The translations under genes and the position numbers were made by a program. A stretch of DNA of 62,788 nucleotides, filler included, from Globobulimina sp. (lineage: Eukaryota): NCBI GenBank assembly GCA_003354225.1. It is 9 parts of 9 records of this genome, joined end to end, with 100 filler letters (N's around TTAATTAATTAA, not from the genome) between each part and the next. Parts side by side here need not be neighbours in the genome. Positions count along the whole stretch, not along the records: positions 48,971 to 55,837 come from PIVH01000226.1; 8 more parts are not named here. The stretch is one strand, 5' to 3'. Position 1 is the stretch's first letter; each line of letters begins with the position of its first letter. The notes beneath the pieces were generated by a model. The model made no database searches. It was not told where the DNA came from and saw nothing but the letters and a program-made list of their open reading frames with translations. Below, piece by piece: positions 3,598 to 59,002 of this stretch.

Positions 3598-4369
3598 TCA
3601 ATAATTTTCACACGGAGTCAAATGGCATCCCAATAGTCCTCGACCATTCCATTTTTGTGGGATAAGTTGTAACGTAGCATATCCCTCAGGATTTCGTTTA
3701 ATTATAACCGGTATTTGCTTGTTTATACTTTGTTTAACAATGTCTTGCATCAATTTTGGTGATTGATTTGATGATGACATTGACCCAAATTTAATCACTA
3801 AATCACCAGATCGTAATCCTGCCGCATGACTTGGTGAACCATTAAAAATTCGATCAATTACATAAAATGGTTTTAGTTCATTTAAATCAATTTCATCTTT
3901 CTTTTTTTTGTCATCTTCTTCTTTATTTGCATTGGATATAAATGCTTTCATATTTGCAATAATGTCTGTTTTCTTATTATTATCGTTTGTTTTTTGTTCA
4001 ATTTGTTCCATTTTATTGTCACTCATATTATTTTTATTATTGTTTTTCTTTGCAAATACATCAACAAGCAATTGTTCAATTTGTTTCATGAGAGAAACAT
4101 GATCATTTTGTAACATTACAACTTTTTTCCTGATTTCAGCTATGCGCCAAATGTCAATATCAGCTCTGGGAAATCCTTCATTGTCCACATACTTTGGTTT
4201 TCTTTTGACCTGTTTCGATGTCACGCAATGAATGCATTGAACTGTGCATAGTACATACATTTCTAAATTCGCTCGGTATTTGGTACAATAAACCTTGTAT
4301 TTGCATTTCCAACTCTCCTCTTTGTGTCTCAAGCGACTTGAGTTTGTCTCTAGGACTTAGTGTTGACAT
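3598..4369 (-). CDS. PSMD9: 26S proteasome assembly chaperone Nas2/p27 (Nas2_N + PDZ), one intron
   Basis: Exon 1 MSTLSPRDK...EFRN joins VKRKPKYVDNEGFPRADID in frame through a 49-nt GTATGT...CAG intron (4210-4258). PDZ motif SPSHAAGLRSGD and C-terminal WNGRGLLGCHL. Confidence 0.92.
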
Positions 4370-4396
4370 TGTAAGTTTGTAGTTTTATTTTTAATC

Positions 4397-5404
4397 ATGT
4401 ACCCGTTAACTGTGGTTTCTTTGCTAGGGGTCATCTTAGGAACTACATTGGTCCAATACCTTTACATTGTGCCACCGGCCATTGCAAACAATGGTAATGT
4501 TTCTAATAATAATGTGGGATATTGGGGTGCAAGTAATAGTGACTTTGATTGGTGTGAAAGGAATTATGTACTAACTCAATACATAGCAGAACCATGGAAT
4601 TCTATAACATCTATGGTTTATGTGGTTGTAGCAATATTATCAATGCATCACACATCAATGCGAGTGCCATCAAGCATTTATATCTCTGATATTACCTTTG
4701 TGACAGCTATAGTAATTCTTATTGGTTTAGGTTCGACTGCATTTCATGCCACATTGTTATATAAAACACAGTTATTTGACGAGATGCCGATGCATTGGTT
4801 GGTGTCATACTCGTCAGTCATGCTTTATACACGCAATGATTACAAATATAAAACCAGTGATTCATCACAAACATCAACACAAATTAAATCCAAAAATTCC
4901 CGAAATTTCTATTTATATTTATTAACGACAATCTTTTGTGTCTCAACGGTAATCATTGTGTGGAAAACACCAAAAAATAGCAAAACGCATGAATTTGCGC
5001 GATTTTCTTGGGCGTTGACATTTGTTTTAGGCTTTGTTTATTGTTTTGGAGTTTGCTGTAAAATGGCCAATCAAGTTCATGATAAAAAGCCCGATAATAT
5101 GCATTATGTTAAAATAAATCAATATTTTGATAAATCATTTATTTCGTTTACAGTGGCTTTGGTTGGTTGGATTTGTGACAATTATTATTGCGAAATACTG
5201 CATAATTTCACCATTTATCAGTTTAATATCCCATATTTACATTTTCATGCGTTTCTATGGCACATTGGAACCTGTGTTGGCTTACATTATTTTATTAATG
5301 TTGTTTTGGCGCATCGCATTGTTTTTCAATATAATAAGGATATCAAATGCACCACATTTTTGGGTATTTTGCCGTGCATTGCTATCGCACAAAAATCACA
5401 ATGA
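4397..5404 (+). CDS. Alkaline ceramidase (CREST superfamily, ACER3-like)
   Basis: GYWG...DWCERNY...AEPWNSITS, GSTAFHATL, QLFDEMPM and HAFLWH motifs; multiple TM helices. Confidence 0.92.
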   Translation: MYPLTVVSLLGVILGTTLVQYLYIVPPAIANNGNVSNNNVGYWGASNSDFDWCERNYVLTQYIAEPWNSITSMVYVVVAILSMHHTSMRVPSSIYISDITFVTAIVILIGLGSTAFHATLLYKTQLFDEMPMHWLVSYSSVMLYTRNDYKYKTSDSSQTSTQIKSKNSRNFYLYLLTTIFCVSTVIIVWKTPKNSKTHEFARFSWALTFVLGFVYCFGVCCKMANQVHDKKPDNMHYVKINQYFDKSFISFTVALVGWICDNYYCEILHNFTIYQFNIPYLHFHAFLWHIGTCVGLHYFINVVLAHRIVFQYNKDIKCTTFLGILPCIAIAQKSQ

Positions 5405-5733
5405 CTTTGTATAGGACTAATTATTAATTAGTTAACTGCTTCGTTTATGACGCTTTGCTTTTTCTTTAATTTGCATATTATTTTCCGCTTAAAATGCAAG
5501 TTTTCAATTGGCTTCGTGTTCGATTTCAGACAAACAAAAAAAAACAAATTTTAATATTTATAACACAATCACAAAACAACCCAATACAATATCAAATTTA
5601 CAAGAATGAAAAGTAATATCATAGCTATATTGTTTTGCGGTGTAAAAAACACAAAAAAATAAGAATATTATAATAATTATATGTATATAATTAAGTAAAA
5701 ATTGATTAGCTATAAGTTATACCCATTACTTTT

Positions 5734-6849
5734 TCAACTGCTTTCCCCAGACTTCTTATATAGAATAATATAGATAGGAACCGCATGATAATCCCGATTA
5801 ATAACAAAAATTGTTGGATTTCGCACATCATTCACCAACGAATCATACATTTGCGGTGCCTTAACCATGGACGAATTGCCTAAGCAATACTTGCCAGTAA
5901 TCACTTTACAGGCCAACATTGCATAAATTCCAGACTCTGCGTCTTTTTTTGAATAACCCGCCGCCGTTCTGGCATCTTTTGCAAAATATGAGCCTTTCCC
6001 ATACATATAACGTCGGTTATAGTCTCTGTTGAAGCCGTTCACTATGATTTTCTCGATATTCTCAAGCGACGTGCCATGGAACAAAATCCTCTCTCTTTCA
6101 GATATATCGTCCATTGTAATTGTACTCAATATATTTTCATAGATTAATAAGTTTTGTTTCACATTTTTCTCAATTTTATAAATAGAAACCAGCTCAATCT
6201 TTAAACCGTACATTGTCGACCAAAACAAGCGCCGTATTGTGTGTCCCCGCTCCTCCATATTTAATGGCAGCATACCCGCAGAATCTACACATTTCGCCAA
6301 AGGTAACAGTTTTTTATCAATTTTATGCGCATAGTTTACCTCCAAATATATCTCACAACGCGTGGCTGCAAAATAATCACTTAACATTTTGTTTTCTCGC
6401 AATAGCACCTTTTGTGCGTTTTGGTCAAACAAAAATAGTGTTTGCGCTCTGATTGGGATGGAATGAGTGTCTTTAATCATGGTTTTGAGCCGGAGGATGG
6501 TGTGGGAATATTTAATGTCACTGTTAAGTTTTAATTGGCGACCTTTGTATTGAATACTTATAATTGATTCGCTGTGGTCAGATCGGATACGCATTTTGAG
6601 CAACAAAGTTTGTCCACTCGATATTCCATAATCTGACAGCGTTAAATGGCTTTTTGTCAATGGTTTCAAATTAGGAATACAGAGTTTGAAGACTTCAGAG
6701 TTGAGATTGATTTTAGAAGCTGCTTTTTCTGTTAGTTGTTTGATGGTCGCTGTAGCTTCTATTTGTATTTCAATCGTCCTTTTCTTTCGGTTTAGATGTT
6801 TCGGACAAACACTATGTTGTATTCGTGGAACAAGGGTTTTGATTGGTGA
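5734..6849 (-). CDS. Tandem ubiquitin-like domains + PARP/ARTD catalytic domain (last exon; 5' end probably off contig)
   Basis: The frame is open upstream of the track start to an AG acceptor at 6850, giving TIEIQIEATATIKQL...TLSDYGI (UBL1) and TILRLK...IPIRAQTL...LSDY (UBL2). ART motifs LFHGT, YGKGSYFA, AGY and PTIFVI. Confidence 0.85.
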   Translation of the reverse strand, partial: SPIKTLVPRIQHSVCPKHLNRKKRTIEIQIEATATIKQLTEKAASKINLNSEVFKLCIPNLKPLTKSHLTLSDYGISSGQTLLLKMRIRSDHSESIISIQYKGRQLKLNSDIKYSHTILRLKTMIKDTHSIPIRAQTLFLFDQNAQKVLLRENKMLSDYFAATRCEIYLEVNYAHKIDKKLLPLAKCVDSAGMLPLNMEERGHTIRRLFWSTMYGLKIELVSIYKIEKNVKQNLLIYENILSTITMDDISERERILFHGTSLENIEKIIVNGFNRDYNRRYMYGKGSYFAKDARTAAGYSKKDAESGIYAMLACKVITGKYCLGNSSMVKAPQMYDSLVNDVRNPTIFVINRDYHAVPIYIILYKKSGESS

Positions 6850-6902
6850 CTAATTTAATTGTTGTTTATTTATTATATGTTTCAAAAACTATCTCTTCAG
6901 TT

Positions 6903-7002
6903 NNNNNNNNNNNNNNNNNNNNNNNNNNNNNNNNNNNNNNNNNNNNTTAATTAATTAANNNNNNNNNNNNNNNNNNNNNNNNNNNNNNNNNNNNNNNNNN
7001 NN
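6903..7002. other. Artificial contig linker (N44-TTAATTAATTAA-N44); identical linkers at 13905-14004, 20907-21006, 27904-28003, 34895-34994, 41885-41984, 48871-48970, 55838-55937
   Basis: Identical 100-nt pattern with an all-frame stop cassette, repeated eight times between pieces of non-increasing length. Confidence 0.99.
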
Positions 7003-7958
7003 ATCCCGTCCGGATAAAAAAAAGTCCGAAGGTTGAGATAAAAAAAGTGAAGGTGTTTTTTTATATTATATGTCATTATTGACCTTATATCGGTGCGATT
7101 TCAAAACATTTAAATCATAAAAGCAACTTTAATTAAATACAAAGAGCAGTTTGCACATCTTATTGCTGTTCTGTTGTCGATAGAAAATAATAAACTGCAT
7201 AATACGATAGAAAATATTATTTTCAAGTTCATCGTATCATATACACCAATTCTGATCAGTTAATGGGTATCGTAGTGATACCCCAAATGTAAATGGTTGA
7301 TATGTCCATAACAGATAACATTTCTTCTACATCAGATGCTGAATTACATTATGTTTCTAATATGAATTTATTACAATTTTCTTTGCATTCTTTACTTGCT
7401 CCGTAATGATGGATTTCTTATCATACATCTAATCATTCTCCAAAAAACATAGGTATATGGATGACCTGAATAGTCACGCATTTTTGTTTGTGAATCTGTC
7501 CACGTGGCTGGTTTATAATTATAAGTTACTGTACTGTTTTTTCCTTTTGATGAGTTTTGAATCAAAGCCTAGGTCATCGTGGAGAATATTTGGAAGCAAT
7601 TCAGATGAGGTAGATCCTGTTCAATGTTACAAAAGCACACCAGTTGAGATTTGTTCTTTGTTTTTTGACAATTCCATCGATCAAATTTATAACAATACAA
7701 AAAGGCAAAATATCTTCAAAAGTTTGGATTTATTGAAAATGGACATTGTACAAACAACGAAACAGCAGCAAAACCATTGGATAATAAAAACAATAAACAA
7801 GAAGAGTTTAAATTTGATCATAGGATGTTTATCGACAATGAGTTGTGTTTAAAATCCCGAAAATGTCACGATTTAATCAAATCAAACACATTCAACGATG
7901 TAACAAATTTTATCACATTTTTAAAACAAAATGGATGTTTGTGTTGTTTGAATGTTAA

Positions 7959-10268
7959 TTAACTGGCAATCATTTTAATTGTAAAAGATTTAATTTGTTC
8001 AGCAATTTCTTCAATTTCTGTAATGTTAAATGAATTACTTTCAGTATCAATGAATTGATATAAAATGAATAAAGATTGAACAATTTGGCATTTATTTTTC
8101 AAATAATTCAAAATATTTTCTATGGAATGTGGATTTGATGGAACATGAACAATGACATTGTTTTTATGATAAAAATATAAAACAATCCATATTTGAATAA
8201 ATGACTTAATATTTGTAATATCTTTCAAATCCAAAGAAACAAATTGATTTTTTAAAGTGGAATACATTAAAATAAATTTTTCATTTTGTTGTTTCTTTTT
8301 TTCTTCATTATTGATATAATTATGATATCTATCTAATAATAACTGTTTCGACATTGTTTCAAATGAAGTACAAACATCATTCGTTTCGTTTAATTGGATT
8401 TTCCATTCATTTTCATCATTTTCTAGAATTTTCTCAAGTTTATGTAATAATGATTGAGCTTTAAAGAACAATGAAAACTCTTTATTCTCTTCGTTTGCAA
8501 TTGTATTACAATTATTTTCTGTTAATATTTGTGAGATAGACTTCAAAATATTATATCTATCATTTGTTGTCAATTGAAATGAATTATTTTTATAAAAATC
8601 AAAGGGTTCATTTAATTTAATACTGGCAATATACGCATAAGCAATGAGTAATATATTAATAATTTTGGAGAACACTGTTTGTAACAAATAATGTAATAAT
8701 TCAATCCGTATTGCATCGCAAATATTAATTGTTTCTATGGATAACAATAAACATTCAAAATTAAAATATAATTTGCCGATTATTTTTGATAATCTGTCCC
8801 ATTCTTTTAAAACTTGATTGTTATTTTTATTTTTATATTCTTTTACAAATTGCTGCGACATTTTATTTTGCAATGTAACAATAATAATCTCTGACAATTG
8901 GCGGTTTTCCAATGCATCCAATTCGCAGTATAAATAATTTAAAATTGAAACACATTCGTTTTTAGACAATATATTATATTCTTTTTGTTTATTTAACATA
9001 CATTTAATAATATTATTATCCACTAACAGTTTTATAATAAACTTTAAATGGTGGTTCCAAATACATTGTGGTATAAAATTAATGATCCAACAATCATTTG
9101 TAAATGTGATATCATTTTCGTTCTCATTTTGTTTGCTTTCAACCGAGCTCAACAATGTTTGATTTAAACTTTGTATAAATATATTTCTTGAGAATAGATC
9201 AATTGAACCCATCCATGGTTTCATATATTTATCATAAAATGCATCAAATGAACATATTTTATTTTCTTGAATAATATTCTTTAATTTATCACTATATTTA
9301 TTTTTAAATAGGTCCATATTTATATATCCATTGCATAGTTTGCAAATATTCATTTTATTTTTATTTTTAACAATATTTGTTTGAATATAATCTTGTAATT
9401 CAGACATATTTTTGAATAAATATTTTTCAATGTCATTCAACAATTCTTTATTTTCGATATATCCGTCATTATTTAGTAAAGAGTTACGGATTCGTTTTGA
9501 TCTCAGATTATAAAAATTATTGCTCACAATATATGATTTATTATTTACATTTACTAATTTAAACTTGTCACATTTTGTTGCATTCAGTAAATGCAACAAT
9601 AGCTTGGGATTAATATTAAAAGTATTATCATTATTTAATTGCGTATAGAATTCATTGAGATTTTTGATTGCTGAATGAGATGGAATTGCATTCAATATTT
9701 TATTTTGATATTGTTCTGATTGAATTAATTTAATCTGTTGCTTCCAATGCGATATTAACGAAATATTTGGTGATTGCCGTAATGTGATAAGTATTCCATC
9801 AATGAATTGTTGGAATTGTTTTGTTGTTTTGAATAATTGCGTTAATGCATATTTTTCATTTTCATTATCTTTGCGTTCCAATGAATCAATGATAACACTT
9901 TGTAGGTCTTTCATTGTCATTAAATATGAATGTTGTTTCATTGTATCAATAACTAAGTGTTTCGTACGTTGTTTATAGGTCTGAGTACATATAAATTCTT
10001 TATTTAGACAGTAAAATTGTTCCATTTCCTCAGCTATTTGTAATGCTTTCTGCTTTGCGGGACAGTCAATACATTTGTTGATAAAATCAATGTGAATAAT
10101 TCCATTTTTCTCCACTGCATTCTTGATAGTATTCACCACAAACTCTTCTGTAAAAAATGTACTTTTATCACCACTCCAATATAGTTTCAAGTTTGACTTT
10201 GATAAATAATCTCGAATGAATTTATCATGCAATGAAGTGTTTGTGGCAAACTCAGTCATCCGTCGCAT
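7959..10268 (-). CDS. Divergent E3 UFM1-protein ligase 1-like protein
   Basis: Similarity to UFL1 recalled by eye: N-terminal LYWSGDKSTFFTEEF...GIIHI, central LLHYLLQTVFSKIINILL and C-terminal VIVHVPSNPHSIENILNYL. The 769-aa length fits. Confidence 0.5.
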   Translation of the reverse strand: MRRMTEFATNTSLHDKFIRDYLSKSNLKLYWSGDKSTFFTEEFVVNTIKNAVEKNGIIHIDFINKCIDCPAKQKALQIAEEMEQFYCLNKEFICTQTYKQRTKHLVIDTMKQHSYLMTMKDLQSVIIDSLERKDNENEKYALTQLFKTTKQFQQFIDGILITLRQSPNISLISHWKQQIKLIQSEQYQNKILNAIPSHSAIKNLNEFYTQLNNDNTFNINPKLLLHLLNATKCDKFKLVNVNNKSYIVSNNFYNLRSKRIRNSLLNNDGYIENKELLNDIEKYLFKNMSELQDYIQTNIVKNKNKMNICKLCNGYINMDLFKNKYSDKLKNIIQENKICSFDAFYDKYMKPWMGSIDLFSRNIFIQSLNQTLLSSVESKQNENENDITFTNDCWIINFIPQCIWNHHLKFIIKLLVDNNIIKCMLNKQKEYNILSKNECVSILNYLYCELDALENRQLSEIIIVTLQNKMSQQFVKEYKNKNNNQVLKEWDRLSKIIGKLYFNFECLLLSIETINICDAIRIELLHYLLQTVFSKIINILLIAYAYIASIKLNEPFDFYKNNSFQLTTNDRYNILKSISQILTENNCNTIANEENKEFSLFFKAQSLLHKLEKILENDENEWKIQLNETNDVCTSFETMSKQLLLDRYHNYINNEEKKKQQNEKFILMYSTLKNQFVSLDLKDITNIKSFIQIWIVLYFYHKNNVIVHVPSNPHSIENILNYLKNKCQIVQSLFILYQFIDTESNSFNITEIEEIAEQIKSFTIKMIAS

Positions 10269-48870: not shown

Positions 48871-49937
48871 NNNNNNNNNNNNNNNNNNNNNNNNNNNNNN
48901 NNNNNNNNNNNNNNTTAATTAATTAANNNNNNNNNNNNNNNNNNNNNNNNNNNNNNNNNNNNNNNNNNNNGTGAAAGAGAAACTAACCCAACTACACAAA
49001 ATTCATTTGGCAGAGCATCTTGCCATTGATTTCCCGAATCATTGAACTGAATTTATCTTTTGTTTCTTGTTTGGACACACATAGGTATTCTACCTGATAT
49101 ACGATGTATGATATGTTATCTATGTGTACGTACATATAACTTGATATCGACCTTTCGTCATGTATGTTATCTTTTTAGTCGATGTTTTTTCAGTAGTAAA
49201 CTGTAAGTTGTACTGTTAGTAAACCAGATATACTCATACCATATAATGTAAATGTCGTTTGACATATGTCATGTGTAATTTCTTGTTTTTCATTAATAAA
49301 ATAGTGAATTTTGCTTTACAAATTGTTTATTTTGTCGACCTTTTATTTTTAATCATATATACGGATCAACCCAGAAACCATTGGGCGCTGTTTTCGCCGC
49401 GTCTTAACCGTACAGTACTCCAGGCGTCATTTAATCAGCGTAGAAAAAGCTTTCCTTACGCCTACGGTATATGAGTTTTTCATTATCATTCCAATTCGAG
49501 TGGAACGCGAAGCGCACGCATAACAAACAGTACCCAAACACAGCGAGTGTCCGAATAATTAAGGTTAAGGCTTTTAAAATCGATTTTTTGCTTTGTTTTA
49601 TTGTTATTTATCACCTTCCTTGTTGGGCGCTGTTTCCTGTGGTAGTTTTTGGTCAGTTCAATTTATTCAATTTAGCACGGACTTATAATATAAGTACAAG
49701 GCTATTATCACAGACTATCACAAGTACATCACAAGATACTAACATATTATATTATTGAACATGTTAGAATTTTTATTAATATCAATATATGTGTTCTATG
49801 TGTTCTATTTCAGCAACCTCTGATATTCGTCACATCATTGATTCTCTCATCATTGTTGCCATCTTCTCTGCACATCAATGGACATGGTTTGATCATCCAT
49901 TCATCATCATCATTTGATCTTTTTGACTGCTGTGCAT

Positions 49938-52900
49938 TCAATTTCTATTTTTCATAATCATGTATTGTAATGATTCCGGTCTTATTTTGTATAATTCTTT
50001 AATAATAGTACCTACTATATTTATAATTTGTCCATTGACCATGTCATTAAATATATAGTCAGAACTTAGCATTAAATAACCATATCTTTCATTATCATTA
50101 CATGTTTTATAATTGGGTTTAACATGACCATTCATGTTTGAGGGGAGTATTTCCCATAGATTATTAATATGTTTTTCATAATTTTCTATATATATATTAT
50201 TCGGACACTCCCATATAAGGTGGCTAGTCGTTTCTAATGCATTATCATCACATCTGGAGCATGGTTGGTTTGTTTTGTAATTTAATACTAAACATCCTGT
50301 TCTAGCTTTTAACCAAAAGTCTCCTCCAGTTTGTAGATTAAGTTTATAATTTATTTTTGGTCTAGTTTTTTCTGCGTAATATGTTGATAATGATATCGAT
50401 TCACTTAGTTTGTTGTTATATTCTGCTATCCATGCTTGTTGTATAATATCTTTTATTATATCCTTTTTGGGAATATTTGTGTGATCGATATTATACTTCC
50501 TACAGCATTTTATAGCATGTGTGATCCATATCATACTCGTATTTTTATTATTGTATATTGTTTCTTGTTCTAATAAAACAATTTTTACTATATTATCTGT
50601 ATTTAATTTTTGAATATGTGCTAAATAATTAATAGTTCGTTTCTCGGCTTCCATTTGCATGGGGATCAGCCCTGTTTCACCATATAATACCATATTATTA
50701 CAGTTTCTTGGTAATCTAGCTATTGTTCTTATATACTCTCTTTGTTGGGTTTCTATGCCTCTAAAGGTTTCTATCGAGAACGGAATAGCTGCTATACCAT
50801 GTAATATTTTTGGTATGACATAGGTTTTCCATATTTTGGTTCCATATAATATAGGTCTAGATGTTACTGTAGCAGGTTTGTAGCATCTATATGTTTCTTT
50901 CCTAGTCTTTTCTGCTAAATCTCGTTTATGCTTCTTCATAATATCCATAGTGTTTTGACATAGAGTAATACCTAAATATTTTGCTTCTTTTTCTTCTTGT
51001 ATATAAATTTCTTTCTTGTCTCCTTCAGCTATGTATTTATGCCCTATAGACCAATTGCGTTCTTTCTCTATCGGTCTTTTTAATGGGATAATTAGGCTTT
51101 TAGGTCCTGAGAATTCTATTTTCCATTTATTAGCATAATCGCCTACAATTTTTAATAATTTTTCCATGTTATTTTCGTTTTTCGCAAATAATAACATGTC
51201 ATCGGCGAAAAATAAACCGGATATATTTTGTTTATTTTCTACTGGCCCTATTTCAATTCCAAGGTGACATTTTTCTATTTCTCTACCTAGATCTGCGATA
51301 AATAATGCCCATAATATAGGTGACATGGTACAACCCTGTCTTAAGCCTACTGGCATATTCAATCTATCAGTTTTTGTATCTTGAAATGTTATTGTAGCTC
51401 CTGGATTTTGGTAGCTACTTTTAATAGCATTTATCAGTTTATCTGGAAACCCATAATCTTTTAATTTTTTCCATAATCCATTTCTCCATACTCTATCATA
51501 CGCCTTACATATATCAAGTAAAGCAACAGTTGGGGATTGTGATCTTCTTAATTTATTAGCTCTTTGTACGGTATGTTGTATAACAAGTATACAATCTTCG
51601 ATTCTTTTATTTGCTCTAAAGCCATGTTGGATATATCCTAATATATTTTTTTTTTCTGTTATTTTTTCCAATCTTCCAGTCAATATTAATAGGTATAATT
51701 TACATAAATTACAGCCTAAACATAATGTTCTATAATTTTTAATTTTACTTTTTGATCCCTTTTTATGTAATAATGTTACTTCTTGAGTTTTTCCTATTTC
51801 TGGGAAATAGCTCGAGTCGAACCATTTATTAAAGAGGGCATGGCTTAGATGTGTCATTTCTTCAGGCCAGTTCTTAATAAACTCTGGAGGAATATTTGTC
51901 GTACCAGCCGAAGTATTATTTTTTAATTTGTGTATGGCATCCTTAATTTCTTTGACTGAAATTTCATTTTCTAAGTCTAATTTATCCGGTCCATTTATAA
52001 TGTCACTCATTCCTAATCGTTTTATTTCAGAATTTGATTCTGGCCAGATACCTAAAGTAAATATACTTTCCCAGAATTCTGTTATATGAGATTTAGTATT
52101 TTCTTCTCCAATTACTGGTATTTTATCATCATCAATCAATGTCACCTTTTCCCTTACTCCTCTTTTTAAAGTTTTCATAGTATCGTATAATTGGTGAAAT
52201 TTTCTTTTGGGATTATTAATCCATTTATTATGTGCATTTTCTATTCTCGCCATTTCAGCTCGTTGTCTGATTTGGCGTCTTTCTCTTATTTTCTTAAATA
52301 ATTCATTTATAATATTTCCTTTGAATTCAGGATTCTTTCGTAATTCTTTCCGATAATTGCTGATCTCTAGATTTAATTGTCTAATTTTTCTTGATTCTTT
52401 CTTCTTTTTTATGTTTTTATTTTTATATCCAATAGATTTTATTCCTGCTTCTTCTATAATTCTAAATATAGTATCTTCAGTAAGTTTTTCATTACTATTC
52501 ATTTCATTGATGTTTAATCTTATTTCTTCCTGGAATTGAGGCCAATTTGTATCGTCATTTATTTTCCATTTATCTTTAATTAATTTAGTTTGAATTATTT
52601 TTTCTTTAGTTTTAACACTAATTCGACTATGTATAAAACAATGATCTTTATTACCGATGTTACCATATATGGTGTTCTTTTCATCAATAATTGTTTTAAC
52701 ATTAGTTATATCTGGACTTCTTAATGCAATATCCAGTATTTGGGGATTTGTATTATTTTTGTTATATCCCCATGTCCATGTACCTGTAGTTGTTGTATCT
52801 GAATTTATTAATTTTAAATCCGAATCTCGAATAAAGTTTCTTATAATAAATCCATTGTTATTGATATTATCATGATTGTCTATTATTCCCCATTCATCAT

Positions 52901-53567
52901 TACCTATGTGACCGTTAAAGTCTCCAATTATGAAGACTTTATAGTTATGTAGTCTACACCAATTAATGTGTTGCATTAATCTTTGGCATATTATAGTATT
53001 GATTTCTCTAGCATCAGGGTCACTTTGGTTTCGTAAATATACTGCACATATAGCAGTCATAGCTTTATTTTGACATAATACCCATAAATAATTTATAGAT
53101 ATCTCGTCATCTATATCATCAATGTCTAATCTACTTGGCTTAGTTGATGGTTTAGCCCATATGCTGATTCCCCCAGTTGGTTTACCTATTTGCATTTTAT
53201 GGAAACTTTCATACTCATCAAATTTATGTGTGTCTAAGACTGTTCGGTATTTTGTTTCAACACAACAAATGATATCTGGATTTATAAATTTTATATTATC
53301 ACTTAATAATTCATATTTTGTGTTCATAGAACACACATTATTATATAAAATATCAATAAATTGATCATTATTAATATTTTCATGGTCTTGGCCTTTATAT
53401 TCTTTATAGTTTTCTATATTTGGTATTGAATTGTTATCTAAAATGGAATTGTTATTAAATTTGTTATTTGTGATAGAAATTGAACTGACCTTTATAAGTT
53501 TCCCGTCTTCAATAAATTTGATTCGGGACCTGCATACTTTATCCATCCTATGATGATTTCTCTGCAA
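49938..53567 (-). CDS. LINE ORF2: AP endonuclease + reverse transcriptase + C-terminal CCHC
   Basis: YNNV, CVET, GDFNGH, LD and DH (APE); NYRTL, QHGFR, DICKAYD, GLRQGCTMSP, FADD and YLG (RT); CSRC...ETTSHLIWEC. Confidence 0.96.
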   Translation of the reverse strand: MQRNHHRMDKVCRSRIKFIEDGKLIKVSSISITNNKFNNNSILDNNSIPNIENYKEYKGQDHENINNDQFIDILYNNVCSMNTKYELLSDNIKFINPDIICCVETKYRTVLDTHKFDEYESFHKMQIGKPTGGISIWAKPSTKPSRLDIDDIDDEISINYLWVLCQNKAMTAICAVYLRNQSDPDAREINTIICQRLMQHINWCRLHNYKVFIIGDFNGHIGNDEWGIIDNHDNINNNGFIIRNFIRDSDLKLINSDTTTTGTWTWGYNKNNTNPQILDIALRSPDITNVKTIIDEKNTIYGNIGNKDHCFIHSRISVKTKEKIIQTKLIKDKWKINDDTNWPQFQEEIRLNINEMNSNEKLTEDTIFRIIEEAGIKSIGYKNKNIKKKKESRKIRQLNLEISNYRKELRKNPEFKGNIINELFKKIRERRQIRQRAEMARIENAHNKWINNPKRKFHQLYDTMKTLKRGVREKVTLIDDDKIPVIGEENTKSHITEFWESIFTLGIWPESNSEIKRLGMSDIINGPDKLDLENEISVKEIKDAIHKLKNNTSAGTTNIPPEFIKNWPEEMTHLSHALFNKWFDSSYFPEIGKTQEVTLLHKKGSKSKIKNYRTLCLGCNLCKLYLLILTGRLEKITEKKNILGYIQHGFRANKRIEDCILVIQHTVQRANKLRRSQSPTVALLDICKAYDRVWRNGLWKKLKDYGFPDKLINAIKSSYQNPGATITFQDTKTDRLNMPVGLRQGCTMSPILWALFIADLGREIEKCHLGIEIGPVENKQNISGLFFADDMLLFAKNENNMEKLLKIVGDYANKWKIEFSGPKSLIIPLKRPIEKERNWSIGHKYIAEGDKKEIYIQEEKEAKYLGITLCQNTMDIMKKHKRDLAEKTRKETYRCYKPATVTSRPILYGTKIWKTYVIPKILHGIAAIPFSIETFRGIETQQREYIRTIARLPRNCNNMVLYGETGLIPMQMEAEKRTINYLAHIQKLNTDNIVKIVLLEQETIYNNKNTSMIWITHAIKCCRKYNIDHTNIPKKDIIKDIIQQAWIAEYNNKLSESISLSTYYAEKTRPKINYKLNLQTGGDFWLKARTGCLVLNYKTNQPCSRCDDNALETTSHLIWECPNNIYIENYEKHINNLWEILPSNMNGHVKPNYKTCNDNERYGYLMLSSDYIFNDMVNGQIINIVGTIIKELYKIRPESLQYMIMKNRN

Positions 53568-55837
53568 ATTTCATTAGCCAAAATTTTATTGCCATTTCTA
53601 GTTAATTTTATACCATTTACAAATTTTTCTACGGCATCAATTGTTTCTATAGGTGTTTTACTTTCAATTTCAGCTGCTTTCTTTACTTTATATACTTCAT
53701 GCGTTATGGCTGCTGTTAGACCTACGTATCTAATCGGCAATCCACTTGTTTGTGCTATTTTATTAATTTCTTCTGTAAGATATTTTTCTATTTCATTTAT
53801 AAGTCGAAGATATCCTGGATCGGATTCACTTCTCATATATTTACTACTACCCAATATTGGAGCAGTTAATGAAATCAACTGCACTGCATTAGGATTAATT
53901 TCATGAATATTATGGCATAATTTACTAACATCTCGTACGAGTTGTGAGCAATAATGTTTCCAATCTTCATATACTTGAGAGTTGTATACTTGATTAGCAA
54001 CAATATCTGCACAATCCATAATTCCCTTTATAATTATAACATGTTCTTTTTTATCTAACAGAGCTGGCATAATTGGCATCATAGATCTCAAACGAAGGCT
54101 CAGAAAGGCACTTCCGGATGATCTCATACCATGATAATGTATAAATTTTCTAGTTTCAAATTCATTGGTTGTAGCCAAAATAAAGTCTTCGAGTCCATAA
54201 TTGGTTGAATCTCCCATAATGGAGATTTTTAAACCATTTGGTACTTTAAATGCTTTACTTTGGTGTATAGGAGTTGGGTCCACTATCTGACCGTGCCTTT
54301 CTGCAATACAGTCCAGATAAAGTGGAATTTTTAATGGTTTGCTCTCCAGTGGTTGTTGATGGATTTTACCAGCTGGATACGCATGTACTTTACTGTCATA
54401 TGGGTTTGTTATAATTTCTGCGAATGTATCTGCATTTAATAAGTATTGTGTTGAATATTGCTGATAATAAGGGCATAAAGTTGGTAATATTCTATGAGCT
54501 TCAGCAATAGTTTCATTTCCGGACATTATTCGTTGTTGTTTAGGAAGGTCCCGGCTTCCATGGGAATCCGAACGTTCTCTATCATCTGTTGATTTTCTTT
54601 TAGGTATACTTGGAACACTTGAAACATTTTGAAGACCAAATAATGCTGCGGCAGAAAAATCCGACGATTTTTTAGGAGCATTCATAGGTTGATTATATTC
54701 CCCTTCCGATGAAGGGTCTCTAGAAATACGGAACCCCGGGGTCGGTCTATAAGGACGTCCCCCTCTTTGGTATCCTCTTCTACTTTCTGTATAATTTCTA
54801 TGTTTTTTAGGTTGTGTTTGCCATTCATTAGGATTTTTAAAACCGTCATCATCTGTTTGATGATCGCTTTCAATACCTTTTATACTACTACTTGTAGATA
54901 TTGGTCTACTCTGATCTACATCCTCATGTATAGATTCAGTAATAGATTTTGTATCTAATTCTGGTTTGTCGTGTACTTCTGTTGATGTATCCAAGTTTTC
55001 AGAACCGAATTTATCAAATATATTATCAGAAGTATCATCGGCTTCCAGTCTTTCTTTCGTAGCTTCTTTCTTCTGTTGGGATAATTTGTCAGTGTATAAT
55101 TGAAGTTCTATTTGATATTGGTGAGATTTGGGGTCTAATTTCTCACCTATAACTTTCTTAGCTTCTTTCAATTCTGATCTTGATAGGAATGAATTCCACG
55201 GTGCATCGCCCAATTTAAAATCGGATCGATGTTGTTTATCCGCGAATACAAACCTTTCTTCTCTAATTTTCTGTATGTTTCCTGTAGCGGGATATTTCTT
55301 TTCCCATTTTATATTTTGTATACATTTCATACGCACCGATTGAATGGCCTCATCTTTGGATATATCCGCGAATGACCATTTATCAACATAACTTGAAAAT
55401 TTATAATCCGTTAATTTCTTCTCTTCTTCATCTAAGTCTTTATATTTTGGGGCTAATATATTACATAAATAAGATATAGCTTTACCCAATAAATTATTAG
55501 TTGATGATATATCTTCTAATTTATATATATATATATTTACTTGATCCGTGTTGTAACCAATTCCTAAGTTTTTATTATCTATAAGGAACTTCAAGTTATA
55601 ATTTTCATTTCCAATTTTAGCACAGATCATTGCAAATGTTAAATTTCTTTTCAATACAATTTCTAGGAATTTATAATATTTATTAGAAATCCAACCATCT
55701 GTAAAAGTTTTAATATTTTCTTTATATCTAGCTATAGGGCAACGTTGTAATATATACTCAAAGTACAATTTCTTTTTAATCTTTGACAATCTACGAACCA
55801 TGTCCCAATCAAGACATTCGATCGCAGTTTGCATCAT
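53492..55837 (-). CDS. LINE ORF1 with degenerate SGNH/GDSL esterase-like domain (5' truncated)
   Basis: ISIMGDS (block I), IIIKGIMD (block III-like) and NGIKLTRNGNKILA (block V-like). Open to the contig edge. Confidence 0.75.
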   Translation of the reverse strand: MMQTAIECLDWDMVRRLSKIKKKLYFEYILQRCPIARYKENIKTFTDGWISNKYYKFLEIVLKRNLTFAMICAKIGNENYNLKFLIDNKNLGIGYNTDQVNIYIYKLEDISSTNNLLGKAISYLCNILAPKYKDLDEEEKKLTDYKFSSYVDKWSFADISKDEAIQSVRMKCIQNIKWEKKYPATGNIQKIREERFVFADKQHRSDFKLGDAPWNSFLSRSELKEAKKVIGEKLDPKSHQYQIELQLYTDKLSQQKKEATKERLEADDTSDNIFDKFGSENLDTSTEVHDKPELDTKSITESIHEDVDQSRPISTSSSIKGIESDHQTDDDGFKNPNEWQTQPKKHRNYTESRRGYQRGGRPYRPTPGFRISRDPSSEGEYNQPMNAPKKSSDFSAAALFGLQNVSSVPSIPKRKSTDDRERSDSHGSRDLPKQQRIMSGNETIAEAHRILPTLCPYYQQYSTQYLLNADTFAEIITNPYDSKVHAYPAGKIHQQPLESKPLKIPLYLDCIAERHGQIVDPTPIHQSKAFKVPNGLKISIMGDSTNYGLEDFILATTNEFETRKFIHYHGMRSSGSAFLSLRLRSMMPIMPALLDKKEHVIIIKGIMDCADIVANQVYNSQVYEDWKHYCSQLVRDVSKLCHNIHEINPNAVQLISLTAPILGSSKYMRSESDPGYLRLINEIEKYLTEEINKIAQTSGLPIRYVGLTAAITHEVYKVKKAAEIESKTPIETIDAVEKFVNGIKLTRNGNKILANEICREIIIGWIKYAGPESNLLKTGNL

Positions 55838-55960
55838 NNNNNNNNNNNNNNNNNNNNNNNNNNNNNNNNNNNNNNNNNNNNTTAATTAATTAANNNNNNN
55901 NNNNNNNNNNNNNNNNNNNNNNNNNNNNNNNNNNNNNATAATATATATATTAGTACTAAT

Positions 55961-58900
55961 ATGCGTATCTCTTATCGGGAACACTACTGTATTGTCAATA
56001 TTCAAATCAAACAATCGCAATTCCAGCGGGAATCGGTGCCGGCGAATAAACAAAAAACGTATCATGTAAATGATAGTATTGATTTACGAAAACGAAACGT
56101 TATCGCCGCGTCTTTTGCAGAGGAAGTGACGTTCCCAGGAGCCGAACCTGAATGGAATAAACCTGCATTGAACGTAAATATACCTGCATTTAGAAAGAAG
56201 AAATTATTTTATTATGCGCCAGATTGGAATGATGTGTTCCCTGAACACAAAGCTGAGGCGATCCCAACCGTCAAACCAGCGATTCCTCCCTCTCCACCAA
56301 ATGTATATACCAGAGGCGATACCACATTGCCTGCCGTCATTGAGAATAATAAAGAGTCCCTTCGACTCTCTCAATACCCATCTCCAAAGCGTTCAAATCA
56401 TAGTAAATACGTTAGAAAAAGAAGAAATAAACGAAATAATAATAAGCAACCAACCCAGAAATCTGACATACTCGCGGACCAATTACGTAATATAAAAAAG
56501 ACGGGAGCCTTTGTAAAATACGAGATTAGAAACAAAGAACTATGGGACTGCCGCTTCGATAAAATTGATATAAAAACTGCAGCCGTTGACTTAATGGAAT
56601 ATAAAGATGTATGGTTGGCGGAGAATGAATGTGATATTAGCAATGTACGAGTAACTGCAAATTCATTAAATATATATTCCCCGGTAAGTAAATTCATGGA
56701 TTTGATTAATGGCAAACATCCGGATTATGCGCAAGCCATTGGTATAATTTACAAATTCGCAAATACAAATCACCCCATTCATCGATTAGTAATCCATCAT
56801 TTGGTGCCTTCAACGATTATTATTGACAATAAAATGATGCTACATTTGGATCCAATTAGTTGCTCCAGAACAGAATCGATATTAATGGACTTAAACTGGA
56901 ACGTTCCATATCCAAAATGGCAATATAATGATATTGAAATAACATACATCAAAAAACAATTAGATTGGCGACCGACAAACATGTGCTTATTCAATATACC
57001 ATTAAGTATATTAAATAATAACTCATTACATCGAATATTAAATGAAAAAATAACCGCTGCAATAAACTCGACGTGCATCCTGTATACAATTATTAGTGCG
57101 ATGGAGAATGACTATGATGTGGAAAAAATAAATTTTATGCCATTGTTATTAGCATTAATTAGACCGCATGCGATTAAATTAGAGAGAATTGAGAAAGCCA
57201 AATTGGAATTAAATAAACTTAGATCGAAGCCGGTGCCAATGGACGAAGACACGAATGAAAATAATGCGGATAATAGTGATGACTCAGTAAATCAAGATCT
57301 GTGGTATGATAATTTAATCAATAACATCAATTCGGAATATTTAAATATTATCAAATTGATGGAAAAACACGCGGTATCGCCCGATGACGTAATAAATAGA
57401 AATAAAGTCCGAAATCGACGATGGTGTAGAAATACATTATACCATATGAGTAATGCAACGGGCAGCAATTTCGCATTGCCGTGGTGGATAAACGTGGCGA
57501 GTTGGGAGCGAATGATACATTTTGTAGCGGCGAGAAATTGCATACAAAATATTGACAAACCATTCAGATCGGACTTATTATTCGAAGAAAAGAAAGTATT
57601 TATCACACCGCTAACCACCATCGGAATAAACCCAATGCTATTAATTGGTGATGAAACATTGGGATTTCCCGCAATCGAATTTAGATTTGGCACTCTCACC
57701 AAATTAATGTGCTTATTACGCAGCAATATGTATTATGATTTTATTGCGTTCGCCAAAACGTGTGCCTGCGGCAAAAAATTTGTGCCCCATCCAAAGTGTC
57801 CAGAGCAAGAACATTATATTAAAAAGCAAACAAATAAAATAAAACAGAAATATAAAAAAGGATTAATATCAAAAAAAGCAATGGAAAGACAGATCAGCAA
57901 AATCGTATCAATTAAATGTATTCGTTGTGGATTTTGGGGCCATTTCGGACATGAATGCGAAAATAAAGACGAAGACGTCCGATGTTTATGCTGCTATCAA
58001 TCCAGACATATCCGGACATTAAATGCAATGATATGCAGTGATACTGCCAATTTAATTGATTTATTCACAAATTTGAATGACCTGATTACGAATTGGGAAG
58101 ATGTGGATTTTACCAATGTGGACCATTATAAATTGATGCGGTGCACAGTAAATGAAAAATTAAAGATTGAGGATTTATACAAAGTTATTGATACAAACAC
58201 AGCCAATCGGCAAACCTTATTAAACTCCGCGATATCCGAAGATGTCAAACAAAATAGAAATTATATGGATGCGGCGCAGAATAATAATGAATTACGAGCT
58301 GTTGATGCCATTGTAAACAATAATAATAATCCAATAAATCCAATCCAAACCAACACCATATTACCAACCAACTCGTTGCAAACCGTCGAAGAACAATTGT
58401 TAAATCATGGATTGGTGGACGAAGACTTCGATACCGCTCCCCCTCAAACAATCGAGTTTAATGAATCAAAAAGTATTATATTGGTTGATAATAATACGCC
58501 GAACCAATCAGAATCAGTGAACCAATCAAGAATTGAATTAGAAAACAACCCATATATCTCCCCATCGCTTATCCCTATGTTAACCGATACTGCCATGCTC
58601 CACTCCCTCCAAAATGATGAATTTACCGACAGTTTCTCAAATTTATTATCCAATAACCACCAATCACAAAATAACAACTCTCAATCACCAACCCATGTGA
58701 TTTATGAATTTAATGATGATCCAGAAACAAATACCATTGAACCTAGTAATCGGCCCAGAAAACCCCAACCAAAGAATCAACTCCATTCGGTATCAATTGC
58801 CCCAAATATACCAAAATATAAAGACCGAAATACCAATGACTCGTTCCAGGTAAATATGCTTAGAGATAAGATCAAGAAAACAAAAAAAGATAACAATAAC

Positions 58901-59002
58901 AATAACAAGTTACCTTTCAAGAATTTGAGGAAAAAAGCAAAATCAGCCAATGTAAACAAACGTAAACAACAAAAGTCCGATATGAGAAAAGATACAAAAT
59001 GA
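55961..59002 (+). CDS. LINE ORF1, gag-like with zinc knuckles
   Basis: CIRCGFWGHFGHEC (CX2CX4HX4C), CLCCYQSRH...C, upstream CACG...HPKC and a basic C-terminus. Confidence 0.85.
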   Translation: MRISYREHYCIVNIQIKQSQFQRESVPANKQKTYHVNDSIDLRKRNVIAASFAEEVTFPGAEPEWNKPALNVNIPAFRKKKLFYYAPDWNDVFPEHKAEAIPTVKPAIPPSPPNVYTRGDTTLPAVIENNKESLRLSQYPSPKRSNHSKYVRKRRNKRNNNKQPTQKSDILADQLRNIKKTGAFVKYEIRNKELWDCRFDKIDIKTAAVDLMEYKDVWLAENECDISNVRVTANSLNIYSPVSKFMDLINGKHPDYAQAIGIIYKFANTNHPIHRLVIHHLVPSTIIIDNKMMLHLDPISCSRTESILMDLNWNVPYPKWQYNDIEITYIKKQLDWRPTNMCLFNIPLSILNNNSLHRILNEKITAAINSTCILYTIISAMENDYDVEKINFMPLLLALIRPHAIKLERIEKAKLELNKLRSKPVPMDEDTNENNADNSDDSVNQDLWYDNLINNINSEYLNIIKLMEKHAVSPDDVINRNKVRNRRWCRNTLYHMSNATGSNFALPWWINVASWERMIHFVAARNCIQNIDKPFRSDLLFEEKKVFITPLTTIGINPMLLIGDETLGFPAIEFRFGTLTKLMCLLRSNMYYDFIAFAKTCACGKKFVPHPKCPEQEHYIKKQTNKIKQKYKKGLISKKAMERQISKIVSIKCIRCGFWGHFGHECENKDEDVRCLCCYQSRHIRTLNAMICSDTANLIDLFTNLNDLITNWEDVDFTNVDHYKLMRCTVNEKLKIEDLYKVIDTNTANRQTLLNSAISEDVKQNRNYMDAAQNNNELRAVDAIVNNNNNPINPIQTNTILPTNSLQTVEEQLLNHGLVDEDFDTAPPQTIEFNESKSIILVDNNTPNQSESVNQSRIELENNPYISPSLIPMLTDTAMLHSLQNDEFTDSFSNLLSNNHQSQNNNSQSPTHVIYEFNDDPETNTIEPSNRPRKPQPKNQLHSVSIAPNIPKYKDRNTNDSFQVNMLRDKIKKTKKDNNNNNKLPFKNLRKKAKSANVNKRKQQKSDMRKDTK

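Follow-up and report, generated by a model that had tools for sequence, protein, structure and literature searches.

Probable -1 frameshifting at the ORF1-ORF2 junction of a Globobulimina sp. LINE, with the element's own 3′ terminus as the likely stimulator

The stretch of DNA analyzed here, hereafter the window, is 62,788 nucleotides long, comes from the Globobulimina sp. assembly GCA_003354225.1, and consists of nine unrelated contigs with N/TTAATTAATTAA linkers between them. The host is an AT-rich eukaryote, and the sequence is 28% GC. The element under study sits on the minus strand of the contig at 48971-55837 (C226, PIVH01000226.1). Elsewhere in the window, the contig at 28004-34894 carries phage terminase and portal genes; thus, the assembly includes non-host DNA. 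On the plus strand at 55940-59002 lies a 1038-codon ORF with no Pfam match and with CCHC-like Cys/His motifs near residue 700, which possibly belongs to another mobile element. The principal parts of the element are the following.

53492-55837, minus strand: ORF1, 3′ half only, 781 codons; the open frame continues past the contig end
53540-54259, minus strand: SGNH/GDSL-fold domain, C-terminal in ORF1, with an invariant GDST and a last helix ending in Gly-Trp
53494-53492, minus strand: ORF1 stop codon, read from the sequence
49938-53570, minus strand: ORF2 frame, 1210 codons from stop to stop, -1 relative to ORF1
about 53351-52698, minus strand: APE endonuclease in ORF2 (Pfam Exo_endo_phos, E 2e-5)
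about 51764-50961, minus strand: reverse transcriptase in ORF2 (Pfam RVT_1, E 1.9e-31)
50261-50205, minus strand: CCHC motif in ORF2, read off the translation
49674-49703, minus strand: conserved 3′-UTR hairpin just upstream of the terminus, from pattern search and folding
49646-49650, minus strand: short poly(A) tail of five A's, then flanking DNA (sequence of the studied insertion)

The element is an APE-type non-LTR retrotransposon (LINE). Specifically, ORF2 combines an N-terminal APE endonuclease with a reverse transcriptase, its best PDB sequence matches are LINE-1 ORF2p (E 5e-21), and the 3′ ends of the family carry poly(A) or a simple repeat followed by copy-specific flanks (22 termini listed). 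The 5′ end of the studied copy is off the contig; full-length relatives have an ORF1 of 1600-1900 codons. The C-terminal ORF1 domain has no sequence match in Pfam or PDB, and its predicted structure (pLDDT 80.6) returns SGNH hydrolases as the top Foldseek matches (E 2.5e-5). Among 11 aligned relatives the GDS is kept, and 7 of the 11 aligned copies, including the studied one, have Lys in place of the block-V His, from which the domain may be catalytically altered. The combination of SGNH, APE, reverse transcriptase, and CCHC parts points to the RTEX or CR1/L2 clade, which we treat only as a lead. The CR1/RTEX SGNH-esterase elements likewise have an SGNH-fold domain ending ORF1 and an APE-reverse transcriptase ORF2; the family studied here differs in the length of its ORF1 and in the Lys substitution, and the source paper (PMC3905857) nowhere uses the word frameshift.

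The 3′ UTR is 287 nt long in the studied copy. Its hairpin pattern has 13 matches against 1 in the control, folds in most of the 10 ends examined, and is common to all subfamilies, making it a candidate recognition element for the reverse transcriptase. A search of the whole contig against Rfam gave 0 matches at E <= 1. Two further observations concern the 3′ region. In C35 (L041) and C2146 (L048), the terminal bases recur directly after the A tail, as if reverse transcription had restarted. A 15-nt perfect inverted repeat joins the 3′ flank (49545-49559) to the CCHC-coding region (50196-50210) and is probably due to chance.

An earlier first-pass annotation, made from this stretch by itself, drew attention to the place where ORF1 gives way to ORF2. 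The 3′ end of ORF1 reads TCA AAT TTA TTG AAG ACG GGA AAC TTA TAA, and its features are these.

53513-53519, minus strand: A AAT TTA heptamer, in ORF1 phase
53498-53504, minus strand: G GGA AAC slippery heptamer, the proposed -1 shift site
53491-53497, minus strand: 7-nt spacer containing the ORF1 stop, from the sequence
53544-53546, minus strand: AUG in the ORF2 frame, arising from the ORF1 Gly-Trp codons GGA TGG

Both heptamers are present exactly as that annotation described them, with X XXY YYZ phased in ORF1; likewise, its placement of ORF2 in the -1 frame and of an ORF2-frame ATG at 53546 is borne out by the sequence. The annotation also saw no obvious stem-loop downstream, and minimum-energy folding, the only form of local folding used, agrees: four downstream windows give z from -0.04 to +1.71, and a local stem-loop behind either heptamer was sought and rejected. 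The junction itself is not an assembly error, because a contig from run X3 (marine sediment, another study) aligns across 53426-53627 with neither differences nor gaps. Among the matches listed for runs X1, X2, and X4, no piece spans the junction.

How much weight can the two heptamers carry? Phased heptamers occur at a background rate of 0.4-0.6% per codon, and at the element's own rate two within 26 codons have a Poisson probability of about 0.005. When synonymous codons are shuffled 200,000 times with the ORF1 peptide held fixed, at least two heptamers appear in 5.6% of the trials; among shuffles with an open -1 frame the share is 12.8%. Taken alone, the pair is therefore only suggestive, and the weight of the frameshift case rests on conservation of the second heptamer, G GGA AAC.

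Relatives were collected by searches of the assembly that gave 14 matches at the DNA level, 39 to the ORF2 endonuclease, and 19 to ORF1; contigs were picked via protein homology and not via the heptamer motif, and C38068, whose contig ends before the junction, is excluded from every count. The junction is visible on 23 relatives' contigs, 15 with a -1 overlap and 8 with an in-frame UGA-C stop. Every one of the 15 overlapping elements has a phased slippery heptamer that sits 0-1 codons ahead of the ORF1 stop: G GGA AAC in nine, G GAA AAC in four, and G GGG GGA in two. Judged by the X XXY YYZ rule as excerpted from PMC3542737, 9/15 are exact, 4/15 have a tolerated GGA first triplet, and 2/15 (C57 and C1147, with G GGG GGA) deviate from the slippery consensus; C57 also carries a stop inside ORF1. 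The stop is the next codon after the heptamer in 12/15 and one codon later in 3/15. Mean column conservation is 0.89 over the heptamer versus 0.49 over the 30 nt upstream. In each case the downstream ORF lies in the -1 frame, is open from the site, and lacks a conserved start.

Individual relatives sharpen the picture. In C1150 and C148, an in-frame stop directly precedes the heptamer and the ORF2 frame opens exactly there, so it is not enterable earlier. C1150 keeps heptamer and downstream motif with 222 ORF1 codons on its contig and no SGNH match; thus, the site is independent of the SGNH domain. Outside the assembly, a profile of the ORF1 domain finds 6 proteins among 1.84 billion (two from NCBI, four from ENA), and 6/6 end in GN/EN, the residues encoded by the heptamer, or one residue later, as read from the protein ends alone. 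The two NCBI homologs may derive from a related assembly.

The notion of an ORF1-ORF2 fusion made by a -1 shift, as the first-pass annotation had it, thereby gains support from sequence conservation in one of its two forms. The version with two functional heptamers does not hold up: A AAT TTA occurs only in the studied copy and its closest relative (2/15), and it lies 22 nt from the pairing element described below, beyond the usual 5-9 nt spacing. A AAT TTA is probably an incidental or minor site.

Eukaryotic -1 signals have a stimulatory structure 5-9 nt downstream of the heptamer, according to the excerpt available from PMC3542737. Behind G GGA AAC, the candidate for that role is one arm of a predicted long-range duplex.

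53477-53490, minus strand: putative duplex 5′ arm, GGTCAGTTCAATTT (inverted repeat I16, 14/14 complementary; covariation)
49651-49664, minus strand: putative duplex 3′ arm, the last templated bases of the element; A's come next, then flanks that differ between copies

The GGTCAGTTCAATTT arm starts 7 nt after the heptamer, and the arms are 3812 nt apart in the studied copy. The complementarity was spotted there before relatives were examined. Inverted repeats of 14 nt are in themselves not rare in an AT-rich 6.9 kb (50 inverted pairs are listed in the element), and this one counts through its position and conservation only.

Conservation was assessed by pairing each element's last 20 bases with all of its 22-nt windows (4,362-9,528 windows per element). 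Both ends lie on one contig in six of the 15 -1 elements, which are 54-87% identical in ORF2 and have arms about 3.8-3.9 kb apart. In 6/6, the cognate duplex is the best of all windows. Specifically, the cognate energies are -19.8, -19.6, -22.5, -16.2, -20.6, and -21.9 kcal/mol, and the best alternatives, in the same order, are -10.5, -10.0, -12.4, -14.1, -10.9, and -15.7 kcal/mol. The first pair of values, -19.8 against -10.5, belongs to the studied copy; in C164 the margin is small (-16.2 versus -14.1). Complementarity runs over 11-16 bp. The motif exists in three versions that differ at several bases, and the terminus changes along with it: over the first ten positions, 59 of 60 cells are paired and 7 of 10 pairs show two-sided changes, and swapping partners between the two main motif types drops the pairing to -3 to -6 kcal/mol. 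With only six elements and three motif types, this covariation represents few independent branches. Translated, the motif gives K/E-V-S in one group but R-D-G/N in the other; the protein is therefore not what maintains it.

The pairing also yields a prediction. Junctions that read GGTCAGTAC and whose own ends are missing predicted termini ending in TTGTACTGACC, and four contigs have such termini; these TTGTACTGACC termini and GGTCAGTAC junctions lie on separate contigs that are not physically linked. The loose terminus pattern has 49 matches against 90 in the control, and we kept a match only where the hairpin and an ORF2 context accompanied it. The 3′ partner lies past the 3′ hairpin, in the terminal stretch, and is predicted to be mostly unpaired. 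The pairing could also arise between two RNA molecules. Separately, the group-A motif resembles the splice-donor consensus AG|GTRAGT. We rejected this reading: GT is missing from that position in the other group, and a donor at this site cannot join the ORFs because it lies behind the ORF1 stop.

Three of the 15 elements, C12573 (L032), C36382 (L054), and C579 (L083), keep the heptamer and lack the long-range pairing; their own termini are not on their contigs, and against the 15 termini tried the best value is -8.2 kcal/mol. A conserved local hairpin (z -2.6 to -4.1) is common to the three, 28-60 nt behind the heptamer. With its start at 28 nt, this hairpin is too distant for a canonical stimulator. 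In all, a predicted covarying helix at 6-7 nt is found in 6/6 elements with both ends, the motif type recurs in 12/15, and a structure at 5-9 nt is not found in 3/15.

The remaining eight contigs with a visible junction, C9599 (L036), C8255 (L009), C23994 (L021), C15783 (L013), C388 (L044), C11642 (L031), C46230 (L011), and C41028 (L082), show a different arrangement. In seven of them, an in-frame TGA followed by CA lies 32-91 codons before the endonuclease. The frames upstream of it span 433, 597, and at least 257, 392, 280, 32, and 1 codons, and three of them are similar to N-terminal ORF1 parts of sister -1 elements. In C41028, an SGNH-bearing ORF1 ends in TGA CTA and continues in frame for 64 codons to the next stop, with no endonuclease on the contig. 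The UGA-C elements mostly have a shorter ORF1 without the SGNH domain. Of the 10,983 stop triplets in the contigs of the junction study, 207 are TGA-CA. UGA-C, CAR YYA, and UGA-CUA are leaky stop contexts in the excerpted account of PMC3542737, and these junctions probably work by readthrough. An endonuclease tree of 20 rows (four of them short), which omits C579, C36382, and C41028 for want of endonuclease sequence, requires six changes between junction types, forced by well-supported branches. Long-range pairing is absent from 5/7 UGA-C elements tested, partial in C388, and complete in C9599. Absence from five of the seven would follow if the fusion is what has to be conserved and the duplex exists for the shift. 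Most simply read, the family requires low-level ORF1-ORF2 fusion and has two routes to it.

Some additional observations touch on this class. C15783 and the -1 element C19137 share 98% identity starting about 13 codons past the junction. In C8255, the nine bases directly after the leaky TGA complement the C19716 (L157) terminus type, at -8.3 kcal/mol, on contigs that are unlinked. Finally, the distant metagenome LINEs L171, L172, and L194 have an upstream ORF in the ORF2 frame with a single stop between and no nearby AUG, and they possibly use readthrough (L194 reads TGA CAA).

We propose that the ORF1-ORF2 fusion is made by programmed -1 frameshifting at G GGA AAC, stimulated by the element's 3′ terminus, and on the comparative sequence evidence we regard this as probable. 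Its parts differ in strength. That the long-range duplex forms is the part to which we would commit most firmly, as highly probable; that the shift occurs at G GGA AAC is very likely and nearly as secure; that the duplex is the stimulator is likely, at a distinctly lower level. The full-length RNA would fold back, placing its 3′ terminus as a duplex at the mRNA entrance of the ribosome. The ribosome would stall with GGA in the P site and AAC in the A site, and by tandem slippage a minority of ribosomes would move back one base and enter the ORF2 frame from codon 53498-53496. Most ribosomes would remain unshifted and terminate one codon later. The product of the shift would be an ORF1-ORF2 fusion of roughly 2800 residues (in C64, 1604 plus about 1200 codons). 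A wider proposal, toward which we lean only slightly, is that the RNA circularizes, that the 3′ end serving as the priming site is the sole stimulator, and that the family has repeatedly swapped this device with UGA-C readthrough while keeping the fusion.

A first alternative, which we judge improbable, accepts the -1 shift and gives the duplex another task: shielding the RNA from NMD, by bringing the poly(A) near the ORF1 stop, or keeping the 3′ end close to the ribosome so that the ORF2 protein is loaded preferentially in cis. A variant, drawn from an excerpt of PMC2689704, names NMD shielding or priming. In its favor, one subfamily has the heptamer without the pairing, and C9599 retains the motif behind a readthrough-type stop. 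However, the helix starts 6-7 nt behind the heptamer in 12/15, both where the stop follows at once and where it comes a codon further on. The readthrough-type relatives share the NMD problem, yet five of seven lack the pairing. Moreover, no other stimulator is seen in the 12 motif-bearing elements, whose local z values range from -1.25 to +1.53.

Slightly less probable still is that ORF2 is initiated separately, through termination-reinitiation or internal initiation, with either the 53546 AUG or a non-AUG codon as the start; the heptamer would then be a by-product, and the duplex would perhaps retain or recycle ribosomes. The AUG has a good context in the studied copy (A at -3, G at +4), where it could serve in addition to the shift, and in two relatives, the position of the ORF1 stop is conserved equally with the heptamer, and there are precedents: in the excerpts available, mammalian L1 ORF2 is thought to be made by AUG-independent initiation (PMC5009743), and Zorro3 requires its first ORF2 AUG (PMC1965478). 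Against this, the AUG simply falls within the GGA TGG codons of a conserved Gly-Trp in ORF1, and in most relatives it has no open path into ORF2. The first-pass annotation had offered this ATG as the alternative entry to ORF2, to be weighed by whether it or the heptamers were conserved. The heptamer is present in 15/15, and the ATG is open into ORF2 in 3/15; already in the nearest relative, C64, the equivalent AUG runs into a stop. There is no AUG before endonuclease motif I in 6/15, AUG positions are scattered from -14 to +33 codons with none conserved near the ORF1 stop, and no near-cognate start occurs at a shared position across the 15 elements. Reinitiation, furthermore, predicts neither a phased slippery heptamer nor the in-frame UGA-C of sister elements.

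Finally, coincidence or artefact, whether from AT-richness, shared repeat ancestry, or an indel error at the junction, is very hard to credit: heptamers are indeed common at 28% GC, the ORF1 peptide accounts for part of the double, and all DNA-level comparisons are drawn from one assembly, yet the junction is matched in another study's run and is conserved across elements as divergent as noted above, with compensatory changes over 3.8 kb, which contradicts coincidence for G GGA AAC and the duplex and leaves it likely for A AAT TTA.

The proposed signal has counterparts among known systems. Long-distance -1 elements are described in the excerpts of PMC5009743 and PMC3542737 for barley yellow dwarf virus (BYDV), red clover necrotic mosaic virus (RCNMV), and pea enation mosaic virus RNA 2 (PEMV2). 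Like these, the LINE has a slippery heptamer, a predicted structure about 6 nt behind it, and a polymerase as the proposed shift product, and its partner lies several kb away in the 3′ UTR (about 4 kb in the viruses). It differs in that no local bulged stem-loop is found in the studied copy or in the 12 motif elements, and in that the partner is a terminal stretch rather than the apical loop of a distal stem-loop. In luteo-, diantho-, and umbraviruses, as excerpted, the long-distance partner completes a local stem-loop, whereas the LINE's predicted helix of 11-16 bp replaces one. The carrier here is a LINE, unlike the RNA viruses with long-distance elements, and its terminal bases adjoin poly(A). 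By analogy, then, the LINE signal would work like a BYDV-type element and is not a member of that class.

Among retrotransposons, Dictyostelium TRE5-A and TRE3-A are APE-reverse transcriptase-zinc-finger LINEs with poly(A) ends for which a -1 shift is stated for ORF2; the available excerpt (PMC5911963) gives that statement without shift site, stimulator, or measurement, and we liken them by description only. Paramecium LINE groups 1-3 likewise mix junctions, with frameshifting or reinitiation in two and readthrough in the third; they differ in that the shift is +1, is inferred from consensus sequences, and has no 3′-end pairing described in the excerpt of PMC5405496. LINE frameshifting is therefore not new in itself, having been stated for TRE5-A and TRE3-A and suggested for Paramecium (PMC5911963, PMC5405496). 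Mammalian L1 is alike in being a bicistronic LINE RNA with ORF2 as a rare product, there by an initiation-based route (PMC5009743, in excerpt).

Bombyx SART1, too, is a bicistronic LINE, with rare ORF2 made via stop-start coupling. In contrast to L1 and SART1, the studied family has neither a conserved AUG nor a stop-start overlap. Pairing with the 3′ end as a frameshift stimulator in a retrotransposon was not found in the literature searched, which lay mostly outside subscription journals and Repbase reports. A metagenome scan with the endonuclease gave 45 pattern matches, none confirmed; an alignment-based scan gave 80 distant loci (20-34% identity), 16 of which have a long ORF2 and upstream sequence, and inspection by eye of the ORF ends of those 16 showed no G GGA AAC-stop junction. 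No look-alikes were found in the other genomes compared.

Two long-standing questions about LINEs are how a bicistronic RNA yields ORF2 and how the protein locates its own RNA. This family offers a signal that is precise and mutable, a seven-base site plus a 14-base helix with natural compensatory variants. If our proposal is true, a LINE makes a gag-pol-like fusion, long-distance stimulation extends from plant RNA viruses to retrotransposons, and the family provides an example of a stimulator built solely from a distant strand. More speculatively, because the stimulator is the 3′ end, reverse transcriptase would be made only from complete transcripts, and fresh enzyme would be produced beside the end where it primes. 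In BYDV, a "traffic control" idea holds that a polymerase initiating at the 3′ end disrupts the pairing (PMC5009743, in excerpt), and it transfers directly to the LINE 3′ end: enzyme engaging that end could break the duplex and shut ORF2 synthesis off. Cis-preference would then have a physical basis, and the element would possess a built-in check for complete transcripts as well as a means of switching from translation to reverse transcription.
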